The notes: generated from the letters alone by a model not told the origin. 64,000 nucleotides of DNA from an uncultured Clostridia bacterium (GCA_947632605.1 CANRPX010000007.1:4882-68881), one strand, 5' to 3'. Shown: positions 21,721 to 61,479, counted from the first letter of the stretch. Numbers and translations: made by a program.

Positions 21721-24576
21721 ATGGAGGTAGTTATTTTGGTTGGGAAAAAAGGAAAAAAAGATGAAGAACTTATCGTGGATGTTGAAGATTTTGAAAATTT
21801 TGGTAAGCTAGCAGATGATGATGAATATAAAGAAGGAGAAGTAGAAGAACCAAAAAAAATAGATAAAAAAGATTTAGAAGAAGTACCTGAAGAAGATGAT
21901 GACGAAATAATAGATGACGAAGAGGCAGATGAATATGAAGAAGTCGATGATGACGAATTTGAAGAAGTAGGCGAAGACGACGAAATAGTAGATGATGAAG
22001 AAGCAGATGAGTATGAAGAAGTAGATGACGATGAATTCGAAGAAGTAGGCGAAGATGACAAAATAGTAGATGATGAAGAAGCAGATGAGTATGAAGAAGT
22101 AGATGACGATGAATTCGAAGAAGTAGGCGAAGACGATGAGATAGTAGATGATGAAGAAGCAGAAGAATATGAAGAAGTAGATGACGATGACGAATTCGAA
22201 GAAGTAGGCGAAGACGACGAAATAGTAGATGACGAAGAAGCAGATGAGTATGAAGAAGTGGATGATGACGACGAATTCGAAGAAGTAGGCGAAGATGATG
22301 AAATAGTAGATGACAAAGAAGCAGATGAGTTTGAAGAAGTCGATGATGAAGATGAAATTGTAGATGATGAAGAACCAGAAGAATTCGAGGAAGTCGATGA
22401 TGAAGATGAAGTTGTAGATGATGAAGAACCAGAAGAATTCGAGGAAGTCGATGATGATGATGAAGTTGTAGATGATGAAGAACCAGAAGAATTCGAAGAA
22501 GTAGATGACGAGGATGAAGTAGAAGAAGACGAAGAACCAGAAGAGTTCGAAGAAGTCGATGATGAAGATGAAGTTGTAGATGATGAAGAACCAGAAGAAT
22601 TCGAAGAAGTCGATGATGAAGATGAAGTTGTAGAAGAGGAAGAACCAGAAGAATTTGAAGAAGTCGATGAAGAAGATGAAGTTGTAGATGATGAAGAACC
22701 AGAAGAGTTCGAAGAAGTCGATGATGAAGATGAAGTTGTAGATGATGAAGAACCAGAAGAATTCGAAGAAGTCGATGAAGAAGATGAAGTTATAGACGAT
22801 GAAGAACCAGAAGAGTTCGAAGAAGTCGATGAAGAAGATGAAGTTGTAGAAGACGAAAAACCAGAAGAGTCTGAAGAAGTAGATACTGAAGAATCAGAAG
22901 AAAATGAGGAAGCAGACGAAGAAGTTAAGGATGAGGATGCAGAAGAAGAAACTGATGAAGATTCTGAATTTGAAGAATCAGATGAAGAAGATAACGAAGA
23001 AGATGATGACGAAGATGATGAAGACGAAGATGAAGATGATGAGGAAAGTATTTATCCAGATGAATTAGTTGACTTAGAATTAGAATGTATATATATTGGT
23101 CTTCTATTCAATAATCCTAAAGCTATTTCTAGATTTTACTTTTTATTTGAAGATTGTAAGTTTTCTGATAGTGAGTTGTATAATTTATATAGAATAATTA
23201 TATTTAGAGATGGTGAAGCATACGCTCCAGCAAGTGCTAAGGATAAATTCCAATTACCAAGAGAAAATCCAAGAACTTATGATTTAAAATACAAAGTTAG
23301 AAAAATGGCAATTGCAAAAAATTATGACTTAGAAAAAGTTTATACAGACTTAAAAAAATTATTTATATTAAAGAAGAATTATTTAATAGCTCCTACATCA
23401 GCAATACAACAACAAATTCTTGATATACAAAATTATGATTTGTATGATAGTATGACTGTTGAAGAAGTTGAGAGTGCATTAGAGCAAATTACTGTTACAA
23501 CTGGATTGAGTAGAGCAATATTAAATGAAAATGCAACAAGTTTCTTATTAGCAGATGACAATGAATTAAGCAATGGTATATCATTACCATTCCCAACTTT
23601 AACAACCGTGTTTAAAGGTATTAGAAAAGGAGAAACAATGACTTATGCAATGCCTTCAAACTCTGGTAAAAGTAGGTTTACAATTGAACTTGCTTGCTAT
23701 ATAGCATTTATTCATAAGAAAAAAGTATTAGTTATATCAAACGAAATGTCTCAAGAGAAAATGAGATTATGTATGATAACTACAATTTTAAATAATCCAG
23801 AAATTCAAAAACTTCACAAACAAAATATTCGCAAAACAGAGGGAGAATTACTAGAATTAAAATTTAGACCAGATGAAAACAAAAAAGTAAAATGTGATGA
23901 AGAAGGATTTATCTTAAGAAAAGATGGAGAAAATATAGAAGAGTTTGTTAAAAGACTAGAAAAAAATTCTAAAGAATTTAGACAAACAATTGCAGCAACT
24001 GAATGGCTAAATACACAACTAAATAACTCAATCTACTTTATTCACATAACAGAACATTCAAATGATGATTTAAAGAAAATTATAATGAATTATTATTATA
24101 AAGAAGCAATAGAATATATTTTCTACGATACTTTAAAAGCAGATACAGAAAATATTGGTAACGGAAACGAGATTAAGAAAACTGCAACAATACTTTCAAA
24201 TTTAGCACAGAAATTTAAAATGTGGATTGGTTCATCAATGCAATTATTGGAAAGTAGTACATTACCAGTAAATTTAACTATTAATGATATGTCTGCTAGC
24301 AAAACAGTAAAAGAAGTATTAGATACTTTATGTTTAATAAAACAAATAAGTAGACAATCTTTATATAAATATGAATATGCAGATACTGATCAATTTGAAA
24401 ATTGTCATGATATTGAAGTACCAAAAGATACAGATGTTAGATTTTATGCTTGTGTTGTAGATAAGAACAGAGCTGGTGCAAAACCAACATTGTTATTTAG
24501 ATTAAACTTAGCTTATAATGAATGGGAAGAAATGGGTCATTTAAGATTAAAACAGTCTGAAATAGAAGAAGATTAG
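21721..24576 (+). CDS. Poly-acidic tandem-repeat protein fused to a divergent DnaB-family helicase domain (alternative start TTG 21736)
   Basis: Residues about 60-440 are more than 70% D/E in tandem repeats. Residues about 440-950 show a DnaB-like N-domain pattern (ELECIYIGLLFNNPKAISRFYFLFED), a Walker A (AMPSNSGKSRFTIELACYIA), the SNEMS motif, a Walker B (IFYDTL) and a C-terminal VVDKNRAGAKPTLLFRL resembling DnaB IIAKQRNGPTG. Confidence 0.55.
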   Translation: MEVVILVGKKGKKDEELIVDVEDFENFGKLADDDEYKEGEVEEPKKIDKKDLEEVPEEDDDEIIDDEEADEYEEVDDDEFEEVGEDDEIVDDEEADEYEEVDDDEFEEVGEDDKIVDDEEADEYEEVDDDEFEEVGEDDEIVDDEEAEEYEEVDDDDEFEEVGEDDEIVDDEEADEYEEVDDDDEFEEVGEDDEIVDDKEADEFEEVDDEDEIVDDEEPEEFEEVDDEDEVVDDEEPEEFEEVDDDDEVVDDEEPEEFEEVDDEDEVEEDEEPEEFEEVDDEDEVVDDEEPEEFEEVDDEDEVVEEEEPEEFEEVDEEDEVVDDEEPEEFEEVDDEDEVVDDEEPEEFEEVDEEDEVIDDEEPEEFEEVDEEDEVVEDEKPEESEEVDTEESEENEEADEEVKDEDAEEETDEDSEFEESDEEDNEEDDDEDDEDEDEDDEESIYPDELVDLELECIYIGLLFNNPKAISRFYFLFEDCKFSDSELYNLYRIIIFRDGEAYAPASAKDKFQLPRENPRTYDLKYKVRKMAIAKNYDLEKVYTDLKKLFILKKNYLIAPTSAIQQQILDIQNYDLYDSMTVEEVESALEQITVTTGLSRAILNENATSFLLADDNELSNGISLPFPTLTTVFKGIRKGETMTYAMPSNSGKSRFTIELACYIAFIHKKKVLVISNEMSQEKMRLCMITTILNNPEIQKLHKQNIRKTEGELLELKFRPDENKKVKCDEEGFILRKDGENIEEFVKRLEKNSKEFRQTIAATEWLNTQLNNSIYFIHITEHSNDDLKKIIMNYYYKEAIEYIFYDTLKADTENIGNGNEIKKTATILSNLAQKFKMWIGSSMQLLESSTLPVNLTINDMSASKTVKEVLDTLCLIKQISRQSLYKYEYADTDQFENCHDIEVPKDTDVRFYACVVDKNRAGAKPTLLFRLNLAYNEWEEMGHLRLKQSEIEED
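21895..22870 (+). repeat. In-frame coding tandem repeat array: about 5 copies of a 78-nt unit, then about 11 copies of a 54-nt unit
   Basis: Direct reading of near-identical units (gaaatagtagatgatgaagaagcagatgagtatgaagaagtagatgacgatgaattcgaagaagtaggcgaagacgac, then gaagaaccagaagaattcgaggaagtcgatgatgaagatgaagttgtagatgat). Confidence 0.9.
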
Positions 24577-45128: not shown

Positions 45129-47462
45129 TTATACTTTGAATTTTAAGTTTTCGCCATCCATATATCCATAAACGGTTTGACCAGATATTACTTCTTCTCT
45201 TAATATCATTTCAGCGATTTCATCTTCAACAAGCTTTTGAATTGATCTTCTAAGTGGCCTTGCACCATATTTTAAATCAGTTCCTTTTTTAGCTATAAAT
45301 GCTTTAGCATCTTGACTTAATTCTAATTTTATTTCTTTGCTATTTAAAGCTTCTTGAGTTTTTTCAAGTAATAAATCTACAATTTGTAATAACTCATTTT
45401 CTGTTAAAGAATTAAATACTATTATTTCATCAACTCTATTTAAAAATTCTGGTCTGAATACATCTTTTAAGGCACCTAAAATTTTATCTTTGTTCATTAT
45501 TGCTTGATTTCCAAAACCTATAGAATTATTATTTAAGTTTGAACCTGCATTAGATGTCATAATAATTATTGTGTTTTCAAAACTAACAGTATTTCCTTGA
45601 GCATCTGTAAGTTTTCCATCATCTAAAACTTGAAGTAATATGTTAAATACATCACTATGTGCTTTTTCAATTTCATCAAAAAGAATAATTGAATATGGTC
45701 TTCTTTTAACTTTTTCTGTTAATTGTCCTGCATCATCATATCCAACATAACCTGGAGGAGATCCAATTAATTTAGATGTTGAATGACTTTCCATATATTC
45801 AGACATATCAATTCTTATAATGCTATCTTCACTACCAAACATTTCATAAGCTAAAGCCTTAGCAAGTTCTGTTTTACCAACTCCAGTAGGCCCAACAAAT
45901 ATAAATGATGGTGGACGTTTTGTGCTTTGAAGACCAGCACGATTTCTTCTAATTGCTTTTGCAACAGCACTTACAGCTTCATCTTGTGAAATAACATGTT
46001 TATGAAGATTTTTTTCAAGATTTAATAATTTTTCTGTTTCAGCTTCTGTAATTTTTGTAACTGGAATTTTTGTCCAACGTTCAATTACATCTGCGATATC
46101 TTGAACAGTAAGTACAGCTGGTTTTAATTCTTTTTCTATTTTCTGCATACGTTCTGTAAGATTACATTCTTTTGTTTTTAAATCTGCAGCTTTTTGATAT
46201 TCCTCAATAGAATCTGAAGAAACAGCTTCTTCTTTTTCTTCAGCAACTTTTTTAAGCTCATTTTTTATTAATTCAAGTTCAAATAAAGCTTTATTTTTTA
46301 AGTTTATTTTTGAACAAGCTTCATCTATTAAATCTATTGCTTTATCTGGTAAAAATCTGTCATGAATGTATTTTTCAGACATTTTAACAGTTTTTTCAAT
46401 TATATCTGGTGTAATTACTACTTTGTGATAATCTTCATAATATTTTTTTATACCATTTATAATTTCAATAGTATCATCAATAGAAGGCTCTTCAACAATA
46501 ATAGGTTGAAATCTTCTTTCTAATGCAGAATCTTTTTCAATATATTTTCTGTATTCTTTTAAAGTAGTAGTACCAATTAATTGAATTTCACCATTAGATA
46601 ATGAAGGTTTTAAAATATTAGCAGCATTCATAGAATGTTCTGCATCTCCAGCACCAATTATGTTATGAATTTCATCTATAACTAAAATAATATTTCCATA
46701 AGTTTTACATTCATCAACAAGAGATTTCATTCTAGCTTCAAATTGACCTCTAAATTGAGTTCCTGCGATTACTGCTGTCATATCTATTAAATAAACTTCT
46801 TTGTTTAATAATTTTGCTGGAACTTCTTGACGAGCAATTTTAATTGCTAATCCTTGAGCAATGGCTGTTTTACCAACACCTGGTTCTCCTATTAAGCAAG
46901 GATTATTTTTAGAACGTCTATTTAATATTTGAGTCATTCTTTCAATTTCATGTTCTCTACCAATTACTTCATCTAATTCGCCATTTTTAGCTTTTTCTGT
47001 AAGATTTGTTCCAAAAGTATCTAAAAATTTCTTTTTATTATTTTTTGGTTTCTTTTGAACTTTTACAGTTTTAGAATTATTTGAATGACTTGATTCAGAC
47101 TTATTTTGAGCATCATCATCTTCATTATTATTTACTGCTTTAAAAATTCCAAATATATTTTTAATTGGATTTGCATTTCCATCATCTTCCATATTTTCTA
47201 TATCTTCAGAATTTATCCCTAAAGCTTCTAAATTCATGTTTTCTGAAAAGTCTTTTAATATATTTTCAAACTGATTTGACATGTCTTCGATTTCTTCATT
47301 TGATATATTAGCATTTTTTGCTAATACTTCAAGTGGGTTAATTCCTTTTTCTTTAGCACAATTATAACAAAGACCTTCAACAGTTTTTTTACCATTTTCA
47401 ATTTTATTTAAAAATACAACTGCTGTATTTTTATTACATACTGAACATATCATTAAACTCAT
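45129..47462 (-). CDS. clpE: Clp/Hsp100 ATPase, ClpE-like (N-terminal zinc ribbon + two AAA+ domains)
   Basis: The N-terminus reads CSVCNKNTAV ... CYNCAKE. Walker A motifs GEPGVGKTAIAQGLA and GPTGVGKTELAKALA are present. There are a coiled-coil middle domain and a ClpP-docking-like loop. 777 aa. Confidence 0.75.
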   Translation of the reverse strand: MSLMICSVCNKNTAVVFLNKIENGKKTVEGLCYNCAKEKGINPLEVLAKNANISNEEIEDMSNQFENILKDFSENMNLEALGINSEDIENMEDDGNANPIKNIFGIFKAVNNNEDDDAQNKSESSHSNNSKTVKVQKKPKNNKKKFLDTFGTNLTEKAKNGELDEVIGREHEIERMTQILNRRSKNNPCLIGEPGVGKTAIAQGLAIKIARQEVPAKLLNKEVYLIDMTAVIAGTQFRGQFEARMKSLVDECKTYGNIILVIDEIHNIIGAGDAEHSMNAANILKPSLSNGEIQLIGTTTLKEYRKYIEKDSALERRFQPIIVEEPSIDDTIEIINGIKKYYEDYHKVVITPDIIEKTVKMSEKYIHDRFLPDKAIDLIDEACSKINLKNKALFELELIKNELKKVAEEKEEAVSSDSIEEYQKAADLKTKECNLTERMQKIEKELKPAVLTVQDIADVIERWTKIPVTKITEAETEKLLNLEKNLHKHVISQDEAVSAVAKAIRRNRAGLQSTKRPPSFIFVGPTGVGKTELAKALAYEMFGSEDSIIRIDMSEYMESHSTSKLIGSPPGYVGYDDAGQLTEKVKRRPYSIILFDEIEKAHSDVFNILLQVLDDGKLTDAQGNTVSFENTIIIMTSNAGSNLNNNSIGFGNQAIMNKDKILGALKDVFRPEFLNRVDEIIVFNSLTENELLQIVDLLLEKTQEALNSKEIKLELSQDAKAFIAKKGTDLKYGARPLRRSIQKLVEDEIAEMILREEVISGQTVYGYMDGENLKFKV

Positions 47463-47685
47463 TCTCCTTGGTTAAAAAATGTTAACTTTTATATCTAAAA
47501 TTAGATATTCTATAAAGATAATAATACAATATTTTTAATTTATAGTCAATGGATTTTTATTGAAAAATCCAAATAAAAAAGAAAAAAATAGCAAACAATA
47601 TGTGTGAGTGCTATTTTAAAAAACGCATTGATATTTTAAAATATAAATGTTATAATAAATTCAGATTTTTATAAAGGAGATTCAA

Positions 47686-48558
47686 ATGAAGAGAGCCGTA
47701 AGAGTATTTTTTGATTCGTTACATGGTGCAAAAAAATATTTGTTTTTTATTGGAATAATATTAATTTGTATAGTTGCATTATGTTTGGGCATATATGCAC
47801 AATTTTTTTATAAATATTCTGATACAGATGCATTAATGATTGGAATTAATATTGGAAGTCAAAAAAATGCTGAAGAAATAGATGCATTAAAATCTAATTT
47901 TAATAGTTTATTTACTAATTCTATTGTTGGAGAAAACGTAAATGATGGAATTGAAAGATTAAGACCAGAAAATGATGATTTAGTTTTTACAACTTATGAT
48001 TTAGTTAATGAAGATGAAAACTATTTTAGTGTAAATGCACAAATTCCATTATTAAATGTTAATACAAAAAAAGCAAAAGAAATTAATGCAGATATAAAAA
48101 GTGAATTTTATGACACAGCAAATAGCATAATGAGAAGAACTGAAGGTACAACAGTTTATACCGTTTCTTATGCTGCTTTCGTAAATAAGGATGTAATATC
48201 AATAGCAATAAAATCTTCTTTAAAAGAAGAAGGAAAATCTGAAAAACTTATTGTAAGAACATATAATTATTGTATTTCTGAAGAAAGATTATTATCATTA
48301 ACAGATTTAATAAACTTAAAAGAAACAACAGTAGATAAAGTACAAAATACAATAAATGATGATATAAAGAAGGCATATAATAATGCAAGAATTATAGCAG
48401 AAGAGTTTGGAAATCTTTATGAAAGAGATTTATCTAGTGAAATGTATAAAGTAGAAAGTACAACAACATTCTTTTTAACAGATGAGGGATATGTATATGT
48501 TGTATATGCTTATGGAAATAATGATTATACAAATGAAATGGATGTTGTAATTTTCTAA
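47686..48558 (+). CDS. Hypothetical membrane-anchored protein (290 aa)
   Basis: RBS AAGGAGA, N-terminal TM. No motif recognised. Confidence 0.4.
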   Translation: MKRAVRVFFDSLHGAKKYLFFIGIILICIVALCLGIYAQFFYKYSDTDALMIGINIGSQKNAEEIDALKSNFNSLFTNSIVGENVNDGIERLRPENDDLVFTTYDLVNEDENYFSVNAQIPLLNVNTKKAKEINADIKSEFYDTANSIMRRTEGTTVYTVSYAAFVNKDVISIAIKSSLKEEGKSEKLIVRTYNYCISEERLLSLTDLINLKETTVDKVQNTINDDIKKAYNNARIIAEEFGNLYERDLSSEMYKVESTTTFFLTDEGYVYVVYAYGNNDYTNEMDVVIF

Positions 48559-48572
48559 TAGGGGGAATAAAA

Positions 48573-49832
48573 TTGAAAAAAACAAAAGTATTATTAGTTA
48601 TATTTTTATTAATAATAAGCTGTTTTTCTACATTAGTATTTGCAACAGAAAATGCAGGGGTGCCTACTGAAAGTCAAGCAGCAACAGAAGCAGCACTTGA
48701 TGCAGCTGAAGCAGAAAATACAGCAGATTCTGAATTAAAAGAAAAATCACAAAATCAAGTTTATACTTATGGTAGAATAATAGAAACAGGAGAAGTAAAA
48801 GATGTTACAACTGGAACTGTTAAAGATAGAGTTCAATCAGTTGTAGTAGAAATCACAGAAGGAGATTATATTGGAGAAGAATTTTCTACTGATTATGTCT
48901 TAACTTATGATATAGAAGGAAAAATACTAGCTTATGAATTAGATGTAGGAGATAAAGTTTCAGTACAAATAACCGAAGATGATGAAGGAAAAGCGACAGC
49001 AACTGTTTTAGATGTTGTTAGAGCACCATACTTATTTGGATTATTTGGTTTGTTTTTACTAAGTATTTTGTTAGTAGGTGGCAAAAAAGGAATTAAAGCT
49101 ATATTAGGCTTATTACTTACAATATTTTTAATTTATTTTATTATGATAAGAGGTATTTTTAATGGTGCAGAAGCAATTAGAACTGCAATTATAACAGCAG
49201 CATTAATAATAGTTGGAACATTTATTATAATAGGAAATGGAATTAATAAAAAAATATTAACAGCAGCTTTAGGAACATTAGGTGGAGTTTTATCTGCTGG
49301 AGTTATATCTTTAATATTTAATAACATGGCTAAAATGACAGGTGCTTGTGAAGATGCAATTCAATTAAGTATTAATATGACAACAATGAATTTTAACTTT
49401 AGAGATTTATTATTTGCAGGTATTATAGTATCAGCATTAGGTGCATGTATGGATGTTGGTATGTCAATAGCTTCTAGCTTAGATGAAATCAAAAAGAAAA
49501 ATCCAGAAATAACATGGAAAGAACTATTTAAAAGTGGAATGAATATAGGTAGAGATGTTATTGGAACTATGACAAATACTTTAATTTTAGCTTATGTAGG
49601 TGGATCATTAACATTAATTCTATTATTTATGGCATGTGAAATGGATATATATGAAATATTTAATAAAGAAACAATAGCAGAACAAATAATTCCTGCTATT
49701 GCTGGAAGTATAGGAGTAGTATTTACTGTTCCAATTACTTCATTAATATATTCAGTTTTAAATAAAGATAAAGTTGTATATGAAAAAACTGCTAAAAATA
49801 AAATAGATGGAAAAAGAAGTTTAAAAATTTAA
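48573..49832 (+). CDS. Polytopic membrane protein, YibE/F-like (putative)
   Basis: Signal peptide, an extracellular domain of about 130 aa, then about 8 TM helices. Confidence 0.4.
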   Translation: MKKTKVLLVIFLLIISCFSTLVFATENAGVPTESQAATEAALDAAEAENTADSELKEKSQNQVYTYGRIIETGEVKDVTTGTVKDRVQSVVVEITEGDYIGEEFSTDYVLTYDIEGKILAYELDVGDKVSVQITEDDEGKATATVLDVVRAPYLFGLFGLFLLSILLVGGKKGIKAILGLLLTIFLIYFIMIRGIFNGAEAIRTAIITAALIIVGTFIIIGNGINKKILTAALGTLGGVLSAGVISLIFNNMAKMTGACEDAIQLSINMTTMNFNFRDLLFAGIIVSALGACMDVGMSIASSLDEIKKKNPEITWKELFKSGMNIGRDVIGTMTNTLILAYVGGSLTLILLFMACEMDIYEIFNKETIAEQIIPAIAGSIGVVFTVPITSLIYSVLNKDKVVYEKTAKNKIDGKRSLKI

Positions 49833-50044
49833 GAAATCTTAAGTATAAATAGATATAAAAAGAATACAAATTAATGTATTCTTTTTTTTTTCATTATGAT
49901 AACAAAAGGTAAAAAACACTTAGGGAAATAATAAAAAAATATTGATAATAAAATTTAACTTTGATATAATGAGAGCGAAAAATATGTAGGTTATACAAAT
50001 AAAAATTTTACCAATTTATTAAATTATTAGGGGAGGAAAATGCT

Positions 50045-51319
50045 ATGTTTTGTAGTGAATGTGGAGCAAAAAATCCAGATGGAGCATCTTTTTGCGATCA
50101 ATGTGGAGCTAAATTAGAAGCAACACAAACAGTAAAAAATGAACCAAAAAAAGAAGAAAAAGCTGAACCAAGAAAACAAATAACAATAACTAAAAAACAA
50201 AAAGCTTTAATAGTATTAGCTGTAGTAGTTGTAGTTGCATTATTTGTTGTATACCAATTTATATCATCACAAACTAGTCCTGCAAAGCTTGTAAGTAAGT
50301 ATATGGATGCTGTTCAAAGCAAAGATTACCATACTTTATATGAGCTAGCTGAATTTTCTGGTGATAATGTTTTTATTACAGAAGATGCTTTTTCTAAAGT
50401 ATTAGAAGAAAACTTAAAAAATCTTTCAATTCAAAATTACACAGTAGGAAAAAATATCAAATATGAGAATGCTGGATTGAAAGTAACAGTACCAGTTAAT
50501 ATTACTGCTACTGATACAACTACTTCTAGTACAAAAGAATTTACAATTGAATTATCAAAATTACCAAATAAAAAATTTGTATTTTTTGATAATTGGAAAT
50601 TAGAAAATATGTCTACTCTTTTAGGATATGATATCGTAACAGATTACAAAATAATTGTACCAAAAAGCACAAAAGTAACTTTTGCAGGAATAACTCTTGA
50701 CGATACATATTTAGATAAAGAAGAAAGTGACAAAAGTAAAGCAACCAATACATATAAAATACCACAAATGTTTAATACAGAAAAAGTTGATGGAGAATTT
50801 GAGGTTTTCGGAAATGTAAAAATAAAAAGAGAAATACCAATATCAACTTATAATAATACATATAGATTAACTATTTCTGAAGAAGATATAAACCTTGAAG
50901 AAGAAGAAAAAATGAAATCTGCTATTAAAGAAAATCTTAATACAGTTATGAATGCATTAATAGCAAAAAAATCTTTTGATGAAGTTCAAGGCAATTTTGC
51001 AGAAGGAGATGTAGATTATTCTTCTAGCACTAGAAAAGTATATGAAAATCAAATTAAATATATGGAAAGATTAAGTTATACAGTAAGTGATTTCAATATT
51101 AAAGATGTTGCAATCTCAAGAGTTAGTGTAGATTCATCAAATTTCAATATATCTGTAAGAATAGAAGTTAGCTATACATGGAAAGCTACTTCAACACAAA
51201 ATGGAACAACTAAAGATGCAGACGATACATCTTATGTAACTTATGATCTAGTTTATAAAGACGGAGCATATAAACCTACTCATTTATCAGAATTTCCATC
51301 TTTATATGTATGGATGTAA
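50045..51319 (+). CDS. N-terminal zinc-ribbon membrane protein, type A (single TM + extracytoplasmic domain), paralog 1
   Basis: Starts MFCSECGAKNPDGASFCDQCGAKL (CxxC ... CxxC). A TM follows at about aa 55-75. Confidence 0.6.
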   Translation: MFCSECGAKNPDGASFCDQCGAKLEATQTVKNEPKKEEKAEPRKQITITKKQKALIVLAVVVVVALFVVYQFISSQTSPAKLVSKYMDAVQSKDYHTLYELAEFSGDNVFITEDAFSKVLEENLKNLSIQNYTVGKNIKYENAGLKVTVPVNITATDTTTSSTKEFTIELSKLPNKKFVFFDNWKLENMSTLLGYDIVTDYKIIVPKSTKVTFAGITLDDTYLDKEESDKSKATNTYKIPQMFNTEKVDGEFEVFGNVKIKREIPISTYNNTYRLTISEEDINLEEEEKMKSAIKENLNTVMNALIAKKSFDEVQGNFAEGDVDYSSSTRKVYENQIKYMERLSYTVSDFNIKDVAISRVSVDSSNFNISVRIEVSYTWKATSTQNGTTKDADDTSYVTYDLVYKDGAYKPTHLSEFPSLYVWM

Positions 51320-51349
51320 CATATATTAAAATATGAAAGGAGTAAAAAA

Positions 51350-52201
51350 ATGGCAAAGTTTTGTTCAAAATGTGGAAGACCATTAGTAGAAGGTGTTCCA
51401 TGTGAATGCGAAAAACAACAACAAGAAGAAGTTGTACAGAATGTACAAGTAGAAAATGAACCAAAAGTAGAAGCAACTCAAGTTAAAACAGAAGTAAATA
51501 ATGAGCAGAAAGTAGAAAAAGAAGAACCATCTGTAGTAGGAATTTTATTTAGTCAATATGTAGATAGTATAAAAGGAATGTTCAAAAGACCAGTTGAAAC
51601 AATAAGAAAACAATCTAAAAATTTTTATTTAGGAATAATTGGAGTAGTTATAACAGCTGTACTATTTGGAATTTTGATGAATGGATATATTAGCAATATT
51701 TTATCAGAGTTTGGTATATCTTTAGCTGTGGTTAATACAGCTGTTTCAGCATTAGCTAAATATGGAATTAATTTAAAAATAGGAAATCTAGGACTTAAAT
51801 TCGGAATAGCAATGTTTGTTGTATCTGCATTAATGGTTGGAATTGTATTTGTTATGACCAACTATGTTTATAAGAAAAAATTAGACATAAAAGATTGTGT
51901 TGCAATTATAGGAGTATGTGAGATTTTCTTAACAGTAGGAATTGTTATTGCTTTTGTTGTTTCTTATTTAAGCATATTATTATCATCTTTATTAATGCTA
52001 TTATTCACTTTAGCATTCTTTATACATATACAAGTAGCATTAACACAAGTAGCAGAATTAACAAAAACTCAAGTAATTTATACTGTTTTTGCAACTATAT
52101 TTATACCATTTATTGCAGTATTATTAATTACATGTGTACTTTCATACGCAGATATTATAATTATGATATACAAAAAAACAGTAGCAAATATTTATAGATA
52201 A
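51350..52201 (+). CDS. N-terminal zinc-ribbon membrane protein, type B (polytopic), paralog 1
   Basis: Starts MAKFCSKCGRPLVEGVPCECEKQ, followed by about 5 TM helices. Confidence 0.6.
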   Translation: MAKFCSKCGRPLVEGVPCECEKQQQEEVVQNVQVENEPKVEATQVKTEVNNEQKVEKEEPSVVGILFSQYVDSIKGMFKRPVETIRKQSKNFYLGIIGVVITAVLFGILMNGYISNILSEFGISLAVVNTAVSALAKYGINLKIGNLGLKFGIAMFVVSALMVGIVFVMTNYVYKKKLDIKDCVAIIGVCEIFLTVGIVIAFVVSYLSILLSSLLMLLFTLAFFIHIQVALTQVAELTKTQVIYTVFATIFIPFIAVLLITCVLSYADIIIMIYKKTVANIYR

Positions 52202-52217
52202 TAGGAGGGAGTAAAAA

Positions 52218-53171
52218 ATGGCAAAGTTTTGTTCAAAATGTGGAAGGCCATTAGTAGAAGGTGTTCCATGTGAATGTGAAAAGCAACAAACAGTTCAAAC
52301 ACAACCAGAAGTTAATCAAGCACAACAGGCACAACAAGCAGTAAATCAAACTGTGAATAATGTAACTCAAGTTGGAAGTAATATATTAGATCAAGTAACA
52401 AAGAATGTTAAAAAAATATTTAAAAAACCAGTAGATACTATAAGAGAAAATGTTGAAGAAAGAAATATGAAAAAACAATGGATATTTTTACTAATAAATG
52501 CTGTTGTTTTTGGTTTAGCATCTTATTTTATAGTTAATAATTTTATAAGTAGTTTTGTGAAAACTGTAAATTCGTTAATGACAACAATTGGTACAATAGC
52601 ATCAGCATTTGGAGAAAGTTTCGATTCATCTGATTTAGCACAATTAAACTTTAAAATACCTTTCTTCCAAGTTTTCATTTCTACAACAGTTGTAATGTTC
52701 TTTTCAAATTTAATTCTAATATTAATGCAAAAATTAATAGTAGGAGTTATTTTTAAAGGAAGAGGAAAAGGAAATGCAAGAAACTTTTTCTTTACAGTAC
52801 ATAGTACTGCTTCAATAATTAATACAGTTTCAATTGCAGTTGCAGCTATACTTTCTTTAATGTCAGCAAGAATTGCATTATTAGTAATATTACTAGGAAT
52901 GGTATTATATTTTGTAGTTGTAACACAAGCATATTTAGACTTAACAGAAATAAAAGAAACTAAAGCACCATTTGCAATACCTTTAGGAATGATTTTAGGA
53001 TATATACTTTCTTGTGTAGCATCAATTATTGTATTAGTTCTTGTTTCAGCTGTTAGCATCTTTCAAACAAATTATTATAATAGTACTGTTAATGATGCTA
53101 TAAATGATATGAATTCTATGAATGATTTATACAATTCAGGATCAAGTTTAACAGATATGCTTAATAAATAA
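52218..53171 (+). CDS. N-terminal zinc-ribbon membrane protein, type B (polytopic), paralog 2
   Basis: The N-terminus MAKFCSKCGRPLVEGVPCECEKQ is identical to the previous gene. Polytopic. Confidence 0.6.
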   Translation: MAKFCSKCGRPLVEGVPCECEKQQTVQTQPEVNQAQQAQQAVNQTVNNVTQVGSNILDQVTKNVKKIFKKPVDTIRENVEERNMKKQWIFLLINAVVFGLASYFIVNNFISSFVKTVNSLMTTIGTIASAFGESFDSSDLAQLNFKIPFFQVFISTTVVMFFSNLILILMQKLIVGVIFKGRGKGNARNFFFTVHSTASIINTVSIAVAAILSLMSARIALLVILLGMVLYFVVVTQAYLDLTEIKETKAPFAIPLGMILGYILSCVASIIVLVLVSAVSIFQTNYYNSTVNDAINDMNSMNDLYNSGSSLTDMLNK

Positions 53172-53203
53172 TTAAGGTATTATTAATAAGGGGTGATATA
53201 AAA

Positions 53204-54895
53204 ATGTTTTGTAGTGAATGCGGAGCAAAGAATCCTGATGATGCAGCTTTTTGTTCAGAATGTGGAAAAAAGTTAGAAAAACCACAAGAAAGTGCATCAG
53301 TTAGTGAAAATAATACAACTCAAAATGTGCAATATCAAAAAGTAGAAGAAGTGCAAAATGTTCAAAACGAGCAAAAAGTTTATACACAAAGTAATCAAAA
53401 TAAAAAAAGTCCTTTTTTAAAAGTAGTAATAGTAATTGTATTGCTAGCAATTTTAGGTGGAGCTATATACTTTGCTTATACAAAGTATTTTAAGGATGGA
53501 AACAATAGCTTTTTAAGTGGAACTACAACAAAAACAGAATGGGGAGATAAATACCTTGTATATTTAAATTCTGCAAAAGCTCAAACAGATAAAAAAGCAA
53601 GAGCGAATGAATATGGAATACCAGAAAATGCAGAAGAACTAAAAATAAAATTTGTTGAAGTTCCAGGATTAACAGATCCAATAATGGTTTTAAATTATGT
53701 TCTAGATGGAAAAGAATATGCATTGATTTATTATATAAATAAAGAAGGAAAAGTAAGTCTTGTTACTTACAATGAGGCAACAAATGTAGAATATTTATAT
53801 AATATAGAAGCAAAAACATATAGTTGGTACATTCATTCAACAAGTGCTGGAACACATAAATATACTTTATTAGAAAAAGCAATAACAGATTTATCAGTAT
53901 TAAATCAAGATACGAATACACAAAATGTAGATTCTACAAATACAACACCAACAACAACTGCAGAAGTAACAGTCGATTATGCATTTACAGAATCTGAAAT
54001 GAGTACAAAATATAATGACACATTTATAAAACCAGAAATAGAAAATTCAAAAGGTACAGACATAGATTTAGATTCTGAAGATGATTTAAAAAATACAGTA
54101 GATTCTGCAATAGATGATTATAAACCATCAGATGAATTATTAAAAGAAGAAGAGAAAAAAGAAGTAGAAGAAAAGGCTAAGGAGATAGAAGAAAAGCCTA
54201 AATATTCAAAAATAGATGAATCAAAAGATATTGTTTATACAGGTGCAACATATAATCATTATTATTTAAGTGCTGCATATCCTGTTATAAATATAAATAC
54301 AGATACTGTAAAAGCAATTAATTCTGAAATATATAAAGAGTATGGATTTCCAAACAATATTGGAAATTCCGATGATGCATATATGGATGCATACGGAGAA
54401 TATTTCTTTGAAACAGGTTTAATAGGATATAAATATTTTGTTAATGATAAAACATTATCTCTTATAGTATCAAGAAGTGGTAATGAATCTATATGGTCAG
54501 ATATTTATAATATAAATCTAAAAACAGGAGAAAAGGTCTCAAATTCTGAATTATTATCAATGAAAAATATAAATAATGATGAAATGCTTACAAAATGCAA
54601 AGAAATTGCTGTGAATGATTTTGATACGACTATAAACACAGAACCAGCTGGTTTACGTTTACAAGGATATAAAGAAAGTGAAATAGATGAATTTAGAAAT
54701 GATTTAATAAATGATCTTATGAATCAAACAAGATTATTTTTAGATGAAAATGGAAAGTTATGTCTTGTAACTGATTATCGACATGCTGGTGGTCAATCAA
54801 ATTGTATACAAACAATAATTATTCACATAGAAGAAAATTATAGATTAGAAAAATTAAATGATTCTAATATTAAAAATTATGCAGCAACAAATTAA
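53204..54895 (+). CDS. N-terminal zinc-ribbon membrane protein, type A, paralog 2
   Basis: Starts MFCSECGAKNPDDAAFCSECGKKLEKPQESASV. Single TM and a large ectodomain. Confidence 0.6.
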   Translation: MFCSECGAKNPDDAAFCSECGKKLEKPQESASVSENNTTQNVQYQKVEEVQNVQNEQKVYTQSNQNKKSPFLKVVIVIVLLAILGGAIYFAYTKYFKDGNNSFLSGTTTKTEWGDKYLVYLNSAKAQTDKKARANEYGIPENAEELKIKFVEVPGLTDPIMVLNYVLDGKEYALIYYINKEGKVSLVTYNEATNVEYLYNIEAKTYSWYIHSTSAGTHKYTLLEKAITDLSVLNQDTNTQNVDSTNTTPTTTAEVTVDYAFTESEMSTKYNDTFIKPEIENSKGTDIDLDSEDDLKNTVDSAIDDYKPSDELLKEEEKKEVEEKAKEIEEKPKYSKIDESKDIVYTGATYNHYYLSAAYPVININTDTVKAINSEIYKEYGFPNNIGNSDDAYMDAYGEYFFETGLIGYKYFVNDKTLSLIVSRSGNESIWSDIYNINLKTGEKVSNSELLSMKNINNDEMLTKCKEIAVNDFDTTINTEPAGLRLQGYKESEIDEFRNDLINDLMNQTRLFLDENGKLCLVTDYRHAGGQSNCIQTIIIHIEENYRLEKLNDSNIKNYAATN

Positions 54896-54910
54896 AAGGA
54901 GAAGTAAAAG

Positions 54911-56605
54911 ATGTTTTGTAGCGAGTGTGGAGCAAAAAATCCTGATGATGCAGCTTTTTGTTCAGAATGTGGAAAGAAGTTAGAAAAGCCACAAGAAAGT
55001 GCATCAGTTACTGAAAATAATACAACTCAAAATGTGCAATACCAAAAAGTAGAAGAGGTGCAAAATGTTAAAAATGAACAAGAAAATGTAAGTAATAATC
55101 ATAAAAAAAGTTCTCAAAAAGTTGTAAAAGTAATTGTATTATTAGTACTTTTAGGAATAATTATATATTTTGCATATTCTAAATATTTTAAAGCAGAAAA
55201 TAATGATAATAGTAGTAGTAATAATAATGCTTCATCTTCTGAAGAAGTTACTGTTAAAACAGATTGGGGAAATAGATATTTTGTTATTTTAAAAAATTCA
55301 ATAGAAAAACCTCAAGATGGTTTTGGTATTCCTTCGAATGCAAAAAATGTAAAAATGAGATTTTTAAAAATTCCAACAATAAAATATCCAATAATGATTA
55401 TAAATTATGTAGCAGATGATATAGAACATTTACAAATATCTTTTATTGATTCAAATAACGAAACAGTAAGTTCAAATTTTAAAGAAAAAAAAGTAAATGT
55501 AGAATATCTATATAATTTAGAAAAAAAGAAATATGATTGGTATATTCATTGGCAACAAGATGATGGACATATATATGGATTAGTAACTGAATATCTTCAT
55601 AATGCATTAAAAGAAGGTGAAAATACAGATTCACAAAATGTAACAAATTCAGAAGCAGCTAATAATACTGTATTTGAAACAACAAGTTATTTTATTAAAA
55701 ATGAAGAATATGCTACTAGATATAATCAATTATTTACTGGACAAGAAACAAATAGTTCAGAGGAAGTAGATATAGATGTAAATGCAACAAAAGAAGAACT
55801 TAGAGATAAAATGAATTCAGCTATTGATTTATATCAATCAGAAAATGAACCTACTGAAAGTAGTAATACAGAAGGTACTAATGATGTAATTCAAGCAGGT
55901 GACTTCACTTTGCAATGTGGAGTTTATGAATTTAAAACTAGTGCATCTGATACATCTGATTATCTACCAACTTCTTATACTATAAATAAAGATGGAACAT
56001 TTTCATATAAAAAAGAATGGAATGATATAACTGGAGCAAAATATGTAGACACAGGAAGTGGTAAATATACAATAAGTTTATCAACTTACAATAAATCGAT
56101 AGGAATAATTTCATTCGATTTTGATAAATATAACAGTACAAATAGTCAATTAAATAATTATGATTTAAATAAATATGATGGTACATATTCAGTTTCAAGT
56201 AATAATAATTTTAATAATGAACAAGAAAATGGAGAATATTATTATAAAGGACCAGCAGAAGAAGACAATACATCACAAGCTACAAGTAATAAAATTTCTT
56301 CAGATGAAGCTGTAAAGATTGTAAATGAAAAAATATTAAATAAAGGAAATAAAAATAATACATCAAGTGATACAGATTTAAATGTTGTAGCAAGTTATGG
56401 TAATAAAATCATTAAAGATGAAGAGGGAACAGAATACTATGTTATAGGACTTTATGTCCAAAATGAAGTTACTACATCTTTTGTACAAATAGATTTTATA
56501 TCAACAGATGGTACGAAGTATAAAGAAGTTTATACACCTACTAATTATACAAATAATCAAGTCGTAACTAAATTCGATAAGAGCGGAAACATAGCAGATT
56601 TATAA
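54911..56605 (+). CDS. N-terminal zinc-ribbon membrane protein, type A, paralog 3
   Basis: The first roughly 55 aa are nearly identical to the previous gene. The ectodomain shares blocks (VEYLYN..K.Y.WYIH). Confidence 0.6.
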   Translation: MFCSECGAKNPDDAAFCSECGKKLEKPQESASVTENNTTQNVQYQKVEEVQNVKNEQENVSNNHKKSSQKVVKVIVLLVLLGIIIYFAYSKYFKAENNDNSSSNNNASSSEEVTVKTDWGNRYFVILKNSIEKPQDGFGIPSNAKNVKMRFLKIPTIKYPIMIINYVADDIEHLQISFIDSNNETVSSNFKEKKVNVEYLYNLEKKKYDWYIHWQQDDGHIYGLVTEYLHNALKEGENTDSQNVTNSEAANNTVFETTSYFIKNEEYATRYNQLFTGQETNSSEEVDIDVNATKEELRDKMNSAIDLYQSENEPTESSNTEGTNDVIQAGDFTLQCGVYEFKTSASDTSDYLPTSYTINKDGTFSYKKEWNDITGAKYVDTGSGKYTISLSTYNKSIGIISFDFDKYNSTNSQLNNYDLNKYDGTYSVSSNNNFNNEQENGEYYYKGPAEEDNTSQATSNKISSDEAVKIVNEKILNKGNKNNTSSDTDLNVVASYGNKIIKDEEGTEYYVIGLYVQNEVTTSFVQIDFISTDGTKYKEVYTPTNYTNNQVVTKFDKSGNIADL

Positions 56606-56612
56606 TAAATAA

Positions 56613-56648
56613 AAAAGAAACCTAAATATTTAGGTTTCTTTTTTGTTT
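56613..56648. terminator. Bidirectional intrinsic terminator (convergent with htrA)
   Basis: Perfect palindrome AAGAAACCTAAATATTTAGGTTTCTT with flanking A-run and T-run. Confidence 0.7.
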
Positions 56649-58826: not shown

Positions 58827-60131
58827 ATGGATATACAATCTATTATTCGTAGAAAAAGAAACAAACAGGAGCTAACAGATGATGAAATAAAACATTTTGT
58901 TAGCAAATTTACGAGAGGAGAAATTACAGAAGGACAAGCAGCAGCATTGATGAGTTATATCTATACTAATGGGCTTACAGCAGATGAGATTTTATCTTTA
59001 AGTAAAGCAATGGCAGAATCTGGTGATATGATTGACTTATCAGATATAGCAGATAATGTTGTTGATAAGTATTCAACAGGAGGTGTAGGAGATAAAGTAA
59101 CATTACTATTAATGCCAATACTTGCTTCATTAGATATTCCTGTTGCAACAATAGCTAGTAGAGGATATGGAATAACAAGTGCTGTTATTGATAGGTTAGA
59201 TTCTATTCCAGATTTTAAAACAGACTTAACAATAGAAGAATTTAAACATAATTTAAAAACAATTTCTGTTGCTGTTATGGATCAAGGACTAAATTTTGCT
59301 CCAGCTGAAAGAAAAATGTATAAGTTAAGAAATGAAATTGCTTGTGAAAATAGTTTACCAATTATTGCAGCAAGTTTAATGAGTTTAAAATTAGCTACTG
59401 GAAGTAATAAAATAGTTTTTGACATTGCTTGTGGAAGAGGAACATATATTTCTAATAATGAAGAGGCAAAAAGACTTGCAAAATTATTAGTAAAATTAGG
59501 AAAATCTTTAAATAAAGAAGTAGCTTGTATAGTTACAGATATGAATCAACCTTTAGGATATGAAATTGGTCATAACTTAGAAATGAAAGAAGTTATAATG
59601 GCCTTAAGAGGAAATATTTCAGAAGATTTAGGAAATGTTCTTGAAGCTGTTGGAAGTACAATGATTGCTTTAGCAACTGAACATAAAGATTTAGCAGAAA
59701 ATTCTAAAATGATAAAAGAATCAATACAAAGTGGTAAAGCATTTGAGAAATTTAAAGAAATGGTTGCAACTCAAAAAGGAAACACAGAATATATTGATGA
59801 TCCAGAACTACTTAATAAATCTAAATTTATTATGCCAGTTTTAGCTACTGAATCTGGAACTGTTGAATCAATAGATGCAGATATGGTAGGAAGTATTGCA
59901 ACATACTTAGGTGCTGGAAGAATGAAAGAAGAAGATAAAATAAATAGAACAGCTGGAATAACTTTAAAGAAAAAAATTGGTGATACAGTTATGGTTGGTG
60001 AAACTTTAGCTTATATTCACACAGATGATGAGAAAAAAGTAAATAGTACAACTCAAAATTTAAAAGATGCATTCAAAATTACTAATAAAAAAATAAACTT
60101 TAAGTCTAAAATTTTAGAAATAATAAACTAA
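58827..60131 (+). CDS. pdp: Pyrimidine-nucleoside (thymidine) phosphorylase, copy 1
   Basis: Motifs DKYSTGGVGDKVTL and the overall length (434 aa). Confidence 0.85.
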   Translation: MDIQSIIRRKRNKQELTDDEIKHFVSKFTRGEITEGQAAALMSYIYTNGLTADEILSLSKAMAESGDMIDLSDIADNVVDKYSTGGVGDKVTLLLMPILASLDIPVATIASRGYGITSAVIDRLDSIPDFKTDLTIEEFKHNLKTISVAVMDQGLNFAPAERKMYKLRNEIACENSLPIIAASLMSLKLATGSNKIVFDIACGRGTYISNNEEAKRLAKLLVKLGKSLNKEVACIVTDMNQPLGYEIGHNLEMKEVIMALRGNISEDLGNVLEAVGSTMIALATEHKDLAENSKMIKESIQSGKAFEKFKEMVATQKGNTEYIDDPELLNKSKFIMPVLATESGTVESIDADMVGSIATYLGAGRMKEEDKINRTAGITLKKKIGDTVMVGETLAYIHTDDEKKVNSTTQNLKDAFKITNKKINFKSKILEIIN

Positions 60132-60180: not shown

Positions 60181-61479
60181 ATGAATATTTTAGATATTAT
60201 TGAAAATAAAAAAAATAAAAAAGAATTATCTAAAGAAGAAATTGAGTATTTTGTTAAAAAATATACTGAAGGAGAAATAACAGATTACCAAGCTGCTGCT
60301 CTAATAATGGCAATTTGTATAAATGGAATGACACAAGATGAAATATTAACTTTGACTGTTGCTATGGCAAATTCTGGTGATGTGTTAGATTTAAGTGATA
60401 TTTCAAAAAATATTGTAGATAAACACTCAACAGGAGGAATTGGAGATAAGATAACATTAATAGTAACTCCAATAGTTGCTACACTTGGAGTTCCAGTAGC
60501 GAAAATGAGTGGTAGAGGATTAGGCATAACAGGAGGAACAGTAGATAAATTAGAATCTATACCAGGGTATAATACAAATTTATCAATTGAAGAGTTTAAG
60601 AAAAATATAAAAGATATTGGAATTAGTTTGATAGGCCAAACAGTTAATTTAGCACCAGCTGATAAAAAGATATATGCTTTAAGAGACTCAATTAGTTGTA
60701 CAAAAAGTATACCACTTATTGCTTCAAGTATAATGAGTAAAAAAATAGCTGCTGGAGCAAATTCAATTGTTTTAGATGTAACTTGTGGCAGTGGTGCTTT
60801 TATGAAAAATAAAGAAGAAGCTACAAGATTGGCTAAAATGATGGTTTTAATTGGAAAATGGGCAAAAAGAAAAACTGTATGTGTATTAACAAATATGGAT
60901 GAACCATTAGGATATGCAGTAGGAAACTCATTAGAAATAGTAGAAGCAGTAAAAGCTCTAAAAGGAGATATGGCAAAAGATGTAAAATCTGTTGTTGTAA
61001 AATTAGCAACTGAAATGCTTAATTTAGCTCATAAAAAATCAAAACCTGCTGATAATAGAAAAAAGGTTTTAAAAGTAATAGAGAGTGGAAAAGCTTATGA
61101 AAAATTTAAAGAACTTGTAGAAAAACAAGGTGGTGACGTAAGCTATATAGAAGATACAGAAAAATTTGAAAAAGCTCCAATAATTGCACCAGTATTATGT
61201 GAGAAAAATGGTTATGTTAAAAGTTTAGATGCAGAAAAAGTAGGAAAAGCTGGATTAGAACTTGGAATTGGAAGAATGAAAAAAGAAGATTCAATTGACC
61301 ATAGAGTTGGTATTGTATTTGAAAAGAAAATTGGAGATAAAGTAAAAAAAGGAGATATTTTAGCTTATGTTCATGCTAACTCTCCTGAAAAAGCAAATGA
61401 GTGTGTAAATAGTATATTATCTTCATATAAAATTGGTTCTAAAAAAGTGACTAAGAAAAATATACTTGAAGTAATTTAA
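60181..61479 (+). CDS. Pyrimidine-nucleoside phosphorylase, copy 2 (tandem paralog)
   Basis: Motif DKHSTGGIGDKITL. It is co-linear with copy 1 at roughly 45-50% identity. Confidence 0.85.
   Translation: MNILDIIENKKNKKELSKEEIEYFVKKYTEGEITDYQAAALIMAICINGMTQDEILTLTVAMANSGDVLDLSDISKNIVDKHSTGGIGDKITLIVTPIVATLGVPVAKMSGRGLGITGGTVDKLESIPGYNTNLSIEEFKKNIKDIGISLIGQTVNLAPADKKIYALRDSISCTKSIPLIASSIMSKKIAAGANSIVLDVTCGSGAFMKNKEEATRLAKMMVLIGKWAKRKTVCVLTNMDEPLGYAVGNSLEIVEAVKALKGDMAKDVKSVVVKLATEMLNLAHKKSKPADNRKKVLKVIESGKAYEKFKELVEKQGGDVSYIEDTEKFEKAPIIAPVLCEKNGYVKSLDAEKVGKAGLELGIGRMKKEDSIDHRVGIVFEKKIGDKVKKGDILAYVHANSPEKANECVNSILSSYKIGSKKVTKKNILEVI

Follow-up and report, generated by a model that had tools for sequence, protein, structure and literature searches.

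What unites five consecutive genes whose membrane-protein products all begin with a small four-cysteine, zinc-ribbon-like head? The question is raised by positions 50045-56605 of a 64-kb stretch of DNA from an uncultured Clostridia bacterium (GCA_947632605.1 CANRPX010000007.1:4882-68881; the whole stretch is hereafter called the window), where five co-directional open reading frames (ORFs), here termed A1, B1, B2, A2 and A3 in their order, follow one another closely. A preliminary description of this DNA had taken them for five paralogous proteins in two architectures. All-against-all alignment gives instead three families, namely A1, B1/B2 and A2/A3, which carry two kinds of head and have the head as their common feature. 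At the core of the array lies a pair of A1 and a Yip1-type B gene that recurs in gut bacteria; B1 and B2 keep nearly identical heads on bodies that diverged long ago, and A2 and A3 are later additions. We give roughly even odds (a probability of about 0.5) to the reading that the products constitute a cell-envelope membrane complex assembled via the cytoplasmic heads, which would resemble the systems of TcaA, Llmg_0524-0526 and YknW.

Three protein families behind a common head

ORF calling recovered the five genes exactly where the preliminary description had placed them, all on the + strand: A1 (50045..51319, 424 amino acids (aa)), B1 (51350..52201, 283 aa), B2 (52218..53171, 317 aa), A2 (53204..54895, 563 aa) and A3 (54911..56605, 564 aa). 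The N-termini of A1, A2 and A3 read MFCSECGAKNPD..FC..CG, that is CxxC-x10-CxxC at residues 3-20, and match the Pfam family Zn_Ribbon_1 (PF13240) over residues 2-24 with 36.4, 35.2 and 35.4 bits respectively, above the cut-off of 25; the same profile is matched by all 42 members of the A1 family tested. B1 and B2 begin with MAKFCSKCGRPLVEGVPCECEK, that is CxxC-x9-CxC at residues 5-20, and reach 14.9 and 14.7 bits over half of the profile, below the 25-bit cut-off. The four head cysteines are nevertheless kept in 93 of 93 members of the B family, some relatives having the form CxxC-x8-CxxC, and the B head is a related but distinct four-cysteine head lying below the Zn_Ribbon_1 threshold. Hydropathy assigns one transmembrane (TM) segment to each A protein and about five to each B protein. 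The head is separated from the first TM helix by a spacer of 25-60 residues, which is disordered in the models of A1 and A2. The heads are predicted to bind zinc, given the motif and the Lactococcus lactis proteins of identical spacing discussed below, and by analogy they are predicted to face the cytoplasm (N-in). Only one other ORF in the 64-kb window, a ClpE-like ATPase, has an N-terminal four-cysteine motif, and hence five consecutive headed genes are not a matter of chance.

The relatedness of the five proteins was tested by all-against-all BLAST and profile-profile comparison. A1 resembles A2 and A3 in the head only (75% identity over 28 residues), and the possibility that they are distant paralogues was rejected, as beyond the head the profile-profile comparison aligns nothing past the TM helix. 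Between A2 and A3 the similarity is confined to residues 1-311 (47% identity) and gives way to unrelated C-terminal stretches of ~250 residues, such that A3 is a tandem duplicate of A2 through the membrane-proximal domain. B1 and B2 are related to each other (27% identity, BLASTP E-value 4e-32) and show no relation to the A proteins. These limits of similarity define the three families and the two kinds of head. Thus, of the claims in the preliminary description, the shared four-cysteine start of all five proteins and the division into single-pass A and polytopic B types stand, and the N-terminal similarity survives proper alignment; the idea of five paralogues does not, since A1 shares the head alone with A2 and A3.

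The gaps separating A1, B1, B2, A2 and A3 are, in turn, 30, 16, 32 and 15 nucleotides (nt), each containing a Shine-Dalgarno-like sequence, and a terminator scan found no + strand terminator-like site within the array. The bracketing by strong terminators noted earlier was recovered on both sides. Upstream, an AT-rich hairpin whose 12-bp stem leads into a U run (49857..49893, + strand; inverted repeat I3) closes the preceding unit of the genes up290 and yibE/F; its RNA fold has a free energy (dG) of -11.6 kcal/mol and a z of -3.85, with 0 of 200 shuffles equally stable. Downstream, a bidirectional intrinsic terminator (56607..56648; inverted repeat I1), formed by a 19-pair palindromic stem with T runs on either strand, is common to the end of A3 and the convergent htrA gene. 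Given the short gaps with ribosome-binding sites, the lack of an internal terminator and the terminators at both ends, the five genes look like one transcription unit. Its promoter-like site (49942..49970, + strand), TTGATA-17-TATAAT with a TG extension and 11/12 consensus matches, is a consensus match only, of a kind not enriched over shuffles in this AT-rich region.

The A1-B pair and the homogenised heads

To define the distribution of A1 we scanned one genome per species, which yielded 174 relatives, of which the best 80 loci were kept. All 80 come from uncultured gut Bacilli-type genomes, labelled as Bacilli, Tenericutes, Mollicutes, Erysipelotrichaceae, Candidatus Onthousia, Scybalousia, Ventrenecus, Fimihabitans or Clostridium sp. 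CAG:417; for the few Muribaculaceae-labelled records among the A1-B loci the label is probably mis-assigned. The ORFs of A1 loci were searched with hidden Markov models (HMMs) of the families, and a pair was counted where the next gene after an A1 homologue, read in the same direction, encodes a four-cysteine Yip1 protein. Of 82 loci, 81 show this arrangement, the two genes lying a median of 16 nt apart, and in the lone exception the contig ends after the A1 homologue. The partner genes in distant genomes start with a MAKFC.KCG...C.C head. Clustering of the flanking ORFs revealed no third conserved neighbour among the 82 loci, the up290-yibE/F genes and htrA included; the best flanking cluster, a housekeeping protein with a RelA/SpoT domain according to Pfam, occurs in 11 of them. 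Likewise, no sigma factor, regulator, site-2 protease, ABC transporter or membrane-fusion protein is conserved beside the pair across these loci. One A1-B locus was found per representative genome, without expansion, and the homology is full-length throughout; A1-B is a conserved, housekeeping-like pair in at least 80 species. The B gene is present in one copy in 69 loci and in two copies in 12, B having been duplicated in a subclade.

B1 consists of the head (aa 1-22, 51350-51415), a Q/E-rich linker and a Yip1-type polytopic domain (aa 76-259, 51575-52126); B2 has a head of the same kind (52218-52283) and a polytopic body 24-27% identical to that of B1. The Pfam Yip1 profile (PF04893) aligns with B1 over positions 2-171 of 173 at 23.2 bits (E-value 7e-5), below its 28.6-bit cut-off, and does not match B2. 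Across the family, 29 of 32 members match at E<=0.01 (best E-value 1.2e-12), and the orthologous partners in loci L006 and L008 are Yip1 matches as well. We therefore assign the B family, on these profile matches, to Yip1, though B1 and B2 individually fall below threshold. A search of solved structures by sequence with the B family found nothing. Full-text searching of the literature likewise returned nothing on a pairing of zinc ribbons with Yip1, and both the strict A1-Yip1 pairing and the fusion of a four-cysteine head to Yip1 appear to be undescribed.

In the protein collection, 58 proteins of about 400-440 aa are homologous to A1 over the full length. Following the zinc ribbon (aa 1-25, 50045-50119) and the disordered linker comes a TM helix (aa 50-76, 50192-50272), and the AlphaFold2 model, built from an alignment of 42 sequences (pLDDT 87, pTM 0.73), divides the ectodomain into a first alpha+beta domain (aa 79-186, 50279-50602), a beta-sandwich (aa 197-274, 50633-50866) and a second alpha+beta domain (aa 284-414, 50894-51286). 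Foldseek comparison of the model with the PDB retrieved NTF2-like domains exclusively, with E-values from 3e-5 to about 1e-3 and 7-14% identity. These were the intermembrane-space (IMS) domain of ARC6/PARC6, TcpC, the N-terminal domain of PBP2a/PBP5, the VirB8-like OrfG and the NTF2 domain of RsgI9, with probabilities of 0.96-1.0 for ARC6/PARC6 IMS, TcpC and most PBP2a chains and 0.75-0.82 for RsgI9 and OrfG. The family profile independently matches PDB 3k7c, a 'putative NTF2-like transpeptidase', with an E-value of 1.3e-5. Both alpha+beta lobes of A1, alone among the array proteins, are accordingly assigned to the NTF2-like fold. Within the A1 family there are also weak profile matches to MecA_N and TcaA_2nd. 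The latter (PF22813) covers its whole profile on the first ectodomain of A1 with 14.9-15.4 bits, under the 26-bit cut-off; matches at E<=0.01 occur in 7 of the 42 family members (best E-value 2.9e-4), all 42 staying under the gathering threshold, and no other TcaA domain was found at E<=0.01 in any of them. A1 thus has the layout of TcaA; with the TcaA_2nd match sub-threshold in every member, membership of that family is not demonstrated.

A peculiar pattern emerges at the 5' ends of the array genes. B1 and B2 agree at 96% of positions over their first 77 nt (repeat D4, 51345-51421 and 52213-52289), and A2 and A3 at 92% over their first 178 nt, which cover the cytoplasmic head and linker (repeat D2). 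All three A genes resemble one another over the initial ~106 nt, ribosome-binding region included, with 70-74% identity; past each of these stretches the DNA identity collapses. The direct repeats of the array region are confined to these head-encoding ends. In the 12 genomes with two B genes the bodies cluster by paralogue type in 24 of 24 cases, and the two bodies of one genome are only 18-29% identical, which makes the duplication an old one. The 22-aa heads behave differently: they are 93% identical within a genome versus 74% between genomes, and the latter value does not depend on whether like or unlike paralogue types are set side by side. In 20000 permutations of the head pairing the observed value was never reached, and where one paralogue changes its cysteine spacing (C.C versus CP.C), so does the other. 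Thus, the heads of B1 and B2 evolve in concert while their bodies diverge, owing to gene conversion of the 5' ends, to selection for a common partner, or to both. Judging by the same literature searches, this homogenisation of heads appears to be undescribed. Separately, three independent short-read contigs of the same species in the Logan assemblies (L094-L096) end ~55 nt past the A1 stop, inside the 77-nt B1/B2 repeat, consistent with assemblies breaking at the repeated head.

The heads also mark other genes that continue the A1-B unit: a four-cysteine N-terminus is present in 7 of 47 such ORFs as against 8 of 687 other ORFs of the same loci (odds ratio 15, Fisher p 1.2e-5). Among these headed genes are those for small ribbon proteins with two TM segments in L037 and L040 and for a polytopic protein in L027. 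In the L040 locus, from another Bacilli metagenome-assembled genome (MAG), the A1-B pair is followed by the gene for such a two-helix ribbon protein of 186 aa (9263-9823), a homologue of which follows the pair in L037. At 9845-11596 of L040 there is in addition a 583-aa protein combining a double zinc ribbon and a TM helix with PASTA repeats (E-value 1.1e-27).

These observations bear on the plainest explanation of the heads, namely that they are mere topology or stability devices, a fast-folding ribbon holding the N-terminus of signal-less proteins in the cytoplasm, and that beyond A1-B the genes are neighbours by duplication and drift. Such a role was suggested, in terms of protein stability, by the study of the L. 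lactis proteins (PMC4628341), and it suits both the occurrence of the same ribbon on many unrelated ectodomains, those of the YARHG proteins and of a minority of the relatives of A2 and A3 (below) included, and the fact that A2/A3-type genes stand alone elsewhere. Against it, no part of the A1 family is as conserved as the head: almost all invariant columns fall there (M1, C3, C6, G7, K9, C17, C20 and G21), and the conservation extends to the non-cysteine positions F2, E5, G7, K9 and N10, which is more than a folding plug needs. Furthermore, it accounts neither for the enrichment of headed genes directly downstream of A1-B nor for the loss of paralogue-specific signal from B1/B2 heads whose bodies retain it. 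We therefore regard this explanation as unlikely.

A2 and A3 as module-swapping ectoproteins, and the surroundings of the array

A2 comprises a zinc ribbon (aa 1-25, 53204-53278), a Q/N/E-rich linker, a TM helix (aa 70-96, 53411-53491), a membrane-proximal domain with a charged helical linker (aa 108-330, 53525-54193) and a C-terminal module that we term X (aa 335-563, 54206-54892). A3 has a Zn_Ribbon_1 head (54911-54985), a TM segment (aa 66-94, 55106-55192) and a proximal domain (aa 111-313, 55241-55849) equivalent to that of A2, followed by the unrelated C-terminal region (aa 320-564, 55868-56602). In the AlphaFold2 model of A2 (pLDDT 74 overall, roughly 80-95 over most folded domains) the proximal domain is predicted to contain two helices and seven strands ahead of the charged helical linker. 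The model has no fold match at E<=1e-3 in the PDB or among viral proteins, and a sequence search of solved structures with the A2 family found nothing. A full HMMER search with a clean alignment recovered 1741 cluster representatives of the proximal-domain family at E<=1e-3 and 104 at E<=1e-30, where a word-indexed search gave few. The family varies widely in length (130-813 aa) and in its C-termini. Most of the top 147 representatives begin with a TM helix, 16 of them having an N-terminal four-cysteine motif and most lacking it, and Pfam detects in 66 members, ribbons aside, nothing except PASTA repeats in one. None of the ectodomains of the array tested matches a characterised enzyme, the C-terminus of A3 having been compared by Pfam only.

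Module X is homologous to the ectodomain of up290 and to the proteins P0004 and P0015: residues 326-563 of A2 are 26% identical to up290 over 205 aa (BLASTP E-value 1e-4) and 29% to the up290 orthologue in locus L004 (E-value 4e-9). An affinity of module X and up290 to the RsiV/PdaC type (DUF4163/DUF3298) was considered and rejected, PdaC giving an E-value of 0.54 for up290 and none for A2, and comparison with PDB folds yielding nothing at E<=1e-3. In the sister species GCA_947601495 the A2 orthologue is 94% identical over residues 4-313 and then continues into an unrelated module in place of X, and the more distant GCA_947632185 has this replacement module too. The replacement module shows a faint NTF2-like signal (Lumazine_bd_2 E-value 0.03, Imm-NTF2 0.13), far below the Pfam cut-offs. 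The C-terminal module of A3 aligns with a TM-anchored family of 555 aa without a ribbon (P0005-P0013). Members of this family (e.g. L089 7001-8677), from Clostridia-labelled MAGs, string together a proximal domain, a coiled linker, an A3-type module, a serine-rich spacer and a C-terminal module also found in P0004, a composition which shows that the modules recombine widely.

The array evolves unevenly. Amino acid identity to GCA_947601495 is 86-95% for the flanking genes, 88% for A1, 84% for B1, 72% for B2 and 40% for A3, and within the species A2 and A3 carry 7 and 11 non-synonymous differences versus 0-4 in other genes, the substitutions being too few for a firm ratio of non-synonymous to synonymous rates (dN/dS). 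GCA_947632185 has a single A2-type gene, A-B-B-A, so array size varies between species; within the species the one full-length locus retrieved again reads A-B-B-A-A, and three further contigs of the species were grouped as having mostly the same neighbours. A2/A3 are joined to A1-B only in the window species and two relatives, and proximal-domain genes elsewhere stand alone in unrelated contexts. Together these comparisons show that A2/A3 are a recent, fast-evolving, module-swapping addition to the array from a separate, larger family. This cassette-like family, for whose proximal domain there is no Pfam model, appears from the literature searches to be undescribed.

The preliminary description had read the array as variable ectodomains on constant zinc-ribbon anchors, suggestive of a diversifying surface, receptor or signalling family or of a phage-receptor or adhesin-like set. 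Taken as an explanation of the whole array, this would make it a diversifying display of adhesins, receptors, or decoys against phage or immunity. The first half of that reading fits A2 and A3, whose nearly constant head-and-linker DNA precedes exchanged modules, whose divergence exceeds that of their flanks and of the other genes within the species, and whose family is so variable in length and C-terminus. It fails for A1 and B, which are conserved at full length in at least 80 species at one locus per representative genome. Moreover, Pfam found no adhesin, S-layer, phage or defence family in any array protein, no viral fold was matched, and A1 has no relatives on viral contigs. The sole convincing inverted repeats are the two terminators; no inverton, no diversity-generating repeat and no other phase-variation element was detected, and array composition is unchanged in the one full-length same-species locus retrieved. 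As an account of the whole array this explanation thus seems improbable.

The window has a G+C content of ~25%, and neither regulatory RNAs nor tRNAs were found in its 64 kb. Proteins identical or nearly identical to those encoded here occur in MAGs from rabbit gut ('Lapin') labelled uncultured Clostridia or Bacilli. The array lies among ordinary chromosomal genes, which encode AspRS, an NlpC/P60-SH3 hydrolase, ComEC, a Clp ATPase, HtrA, RNase HII, nucleoside phosphorylases and an M18 peptidase. Upstream of the array, up290 (47686..48558, + strand) encodes a TM-anchored protein of 290 aa with no zinc ribbon and no Pfam domain, and yibE/F (48573-49832, + strand; Pfam YibE_F, E-value 1.5e-76) begins 14 nt after it; the two form a unit with its own promoter-like site (47628-47656) and its own terminator, which is kept in the three relatives examined. 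The Clp ATPase (45129-47462, - strand) has two AAA domains (AAA, AAA_lid_9, AAA_2, ClpB_D2-small) and an N-terminal CxxC-x22-CxxC motif, with no Clp_N at E<=1e-5, which is the layout of ClpE. A tandem pair of pyrimidine-nucleoside phosphorylase paralogues (58827-60131 and 60181-61479; Glycos_trans_3N, Glycos_transf_3, PYNP_C) is present in all relatives examined. Finally, a 951-aa ORF at 21721-24576 lies in the most G+C-rich part of the window (0.33 versus about 0.25), where the GC skew is also strongest (0.43), and is overlapped on the opposite strand by an ORF of 203 aa.

Precedents and a possible envelope complex

The component kinds of the array are known, and ribbon-headed membrane proteins have precedents in TcaA and the Llmg operon. 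TcaA of Staphylococcus aureus has an intracellular N-terminal four-cysteine zinc finger, one TM helix and an extracellular bulk; encoded at a teicoplanin-associated locus, it affects the retention of wall teichoic acid and sensitivity to glycopeptides, and the title of a reference cited in the same paper places tcaA in a three-cistron tcaR-tcaA-tcaB operon (PMC10328498). A1 has the same layout and, in its first ectodomain, the weak whole-profile similarity to TcaA_2nd; it differs in the sub-threshold score of that profile throughout its family and in being always paired with a Yip1 gene. We know of no Yip1 partner for the tcaA operon. In L. lactis the co-transcribed operon llmg_0524-0525-0526, bracketed by hairpins, encodes more than one membrane protein with an N-terminal CX2CX10CX2C motif: Llmg_0526, which resembles TcaA, and Llmg_0524, with two TM helices, are accompanied by Llmg_0525, a hydrophobic peptide of 64 aa (PMC4628341). 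Zinc binding by the CX2CX10CX2C proteins was shown, resistance to lysozyme and peroxide is affected, and deletion of the motif causes a growth defect and an altered lysozyme response (PMC4628341). Compared by description only, this operon has the cysteine spacing of A1, A2 and A3, several genes and bracketing hairpins in common with the array; it differs in having no Yip1-type partner and no reported module swapping.

A precedent for the role proposed for B1/B2 relative to A1 comes from YknW of the Bacillus YknWXYZ transporter, a Yip1-family accessory subunit that modulates assembly of a complex including the single-pass YknX (PMC4887032). The A1-B pair differs from it in having no linked ABC transporter or membrane-fusion protein. 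To our knowledge YknW also has no four-cysteine head. NTF2-like extracytoplasmic domains, such as MecA_N, the IMS domains of ARC6/PARC6, TcpC/OrfG and the domain of RsgI9, are mostly membrane-proximal scaffolds or protein-binding modules in division, conjugation and wall synthesis. Both A1 lobes resemble them at the level of the fold; A1 differs from their host proteins in having no attached catalytic or transporter domain.

Building on these analogies with TcaA, Llmg_0524/0526, YknW and the N-terminal domain of PBP2a, we propose that the subunits associate physically and serve the cell envelope. A1 and B together would make a membrane complex in which the Yip1 subunits form the in-membrane platform, and the small cytoplasmic heads would bind the subunits together or dock them on a common cytoplasmic partner, leaving the ectodomains to work outside the cell on its envelope. 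In this lineage B was duplicated into B1 and B2 with the heads kept identical, and A2 and A3, appended from their separate family, would supply a variable, outward-facing part. Circumstantially, an envelope role suits the MecA_N-type NTF2 domain, the PASTA protein encoded in the A1-B operon of L040 and the presence of a wall hydrolase gene in the window. Several points weigh against the proposed complex: A1 and B are tied together by gene linkage, which alone does not prove a complex; the similarity to TcaA lies under the Pfam threshold in every A1-family member; the NTF2-like fold is generic and says little on the ligand; the identity of the B1 and B2 heads could reflect gene conversion without functional meaning; the seven headed operon-continuing genes trace back to no more than three or four independent lineages; very few substitutions underlie the within-species dN/dS values; and the stand-alone occurrence of the A2/A3 family elsewhere means that its functional coupling to A1-B may be loose.

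A different use of the same parts is suggested by Gram-positive proteins such as the YARHG proteins, for which Coggill and Bateman described a plan of zinc ribbon, TM helix and extracellular domain and proposed the idea of membrane-tethered transcription factors (PMC3355149). They share with the array this plan, the ribbon families (PF13240, PF12773, PF13248) and, with the proximal-domain family, the ribbon as an optional N-terminal add-on; their ectodomains differ, and the tethered-transcription-factor idea fits the array poorly. Applied here, it would mean transmembrane signalling: ligand sensing by the ectodomain would free or shift the ribbon, for instance through proteolysis by the neighbouring HtrA or by a site-2 protease, and the ribbon would then engage nucleic acid or a transcription factor. 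Consistent with this, the ribbons stand 25-60 disordered residues away from the membrane, the anti-sigma sensor RsgI9 contributes an NTF2 domain to the A1 fold matches, and htrA lies next to the array in convergent orientation, both here and in three relatives. The head, on the other hand, is a single ribbon of ~23 residues, and Pfam shows no DNA-binding or anti-sigma domain besides it; distant loci lack the htrA neighbourhood, and A1-B has no conserved neighbour that is a sigma factor, regulator or site-2 protease; the polytopic Yip1 partner has no sensing ectodomain; and the identical B1/B2 heads are left unexplained. We consider signalling of this sort a doubtful prospect. An origin in a defence system or a phage is rejected, as PADLOC models gave just two weak matches in low-complexity linkers, PHROG models matched only head and linker, no structural match to viral proteins was found, and no A1 relative occurs on the viral contigs of IMG/VR.

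Returning to the envelope complex, a bolder version of it, which we put forward only tentatively and think unlikely as it stands, holds that the heads act as a modular docking code, whereby any protein with a matching head would be recruited at the cytoplasmic face onto the Yip1 platform. If so, exchangeable ectodomains such as NTF2 scaffolds, PASTA repeats and the A2/A3 modules would be plugged into one envelope machine, and gene conversion would keep the heads of co-resident paralogues identical and hence compatible. This would amount to an undescribed principle for assembling surface or sensory complexes in cell-walled gut Bacilli, and to a first function for the very common, unexplained N-terminal zinc ribbons of Gram-positive membrane proteins. 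Such ribbons are widespread and their roles barely known, the studied cases (TcaA, Llmg_0524/0526) leading to cell-wall integrity and antibiotic susceptibility. The locus offers three handles on them, namely a two-gene module that is hardly ever split across a large clade of uncultured gut Bacilli, homogenised heads on diverging bodies, and the independent recruitment of headed proteins, one of them bearing PASTA repeats. In this way it turns a vague domain annotation into the testable hypothesis that the heads mediate assembly on a Yip1 platform, and through A2 and A3 it is also a hot spot of surface variation within a gut lineage about which little is known.

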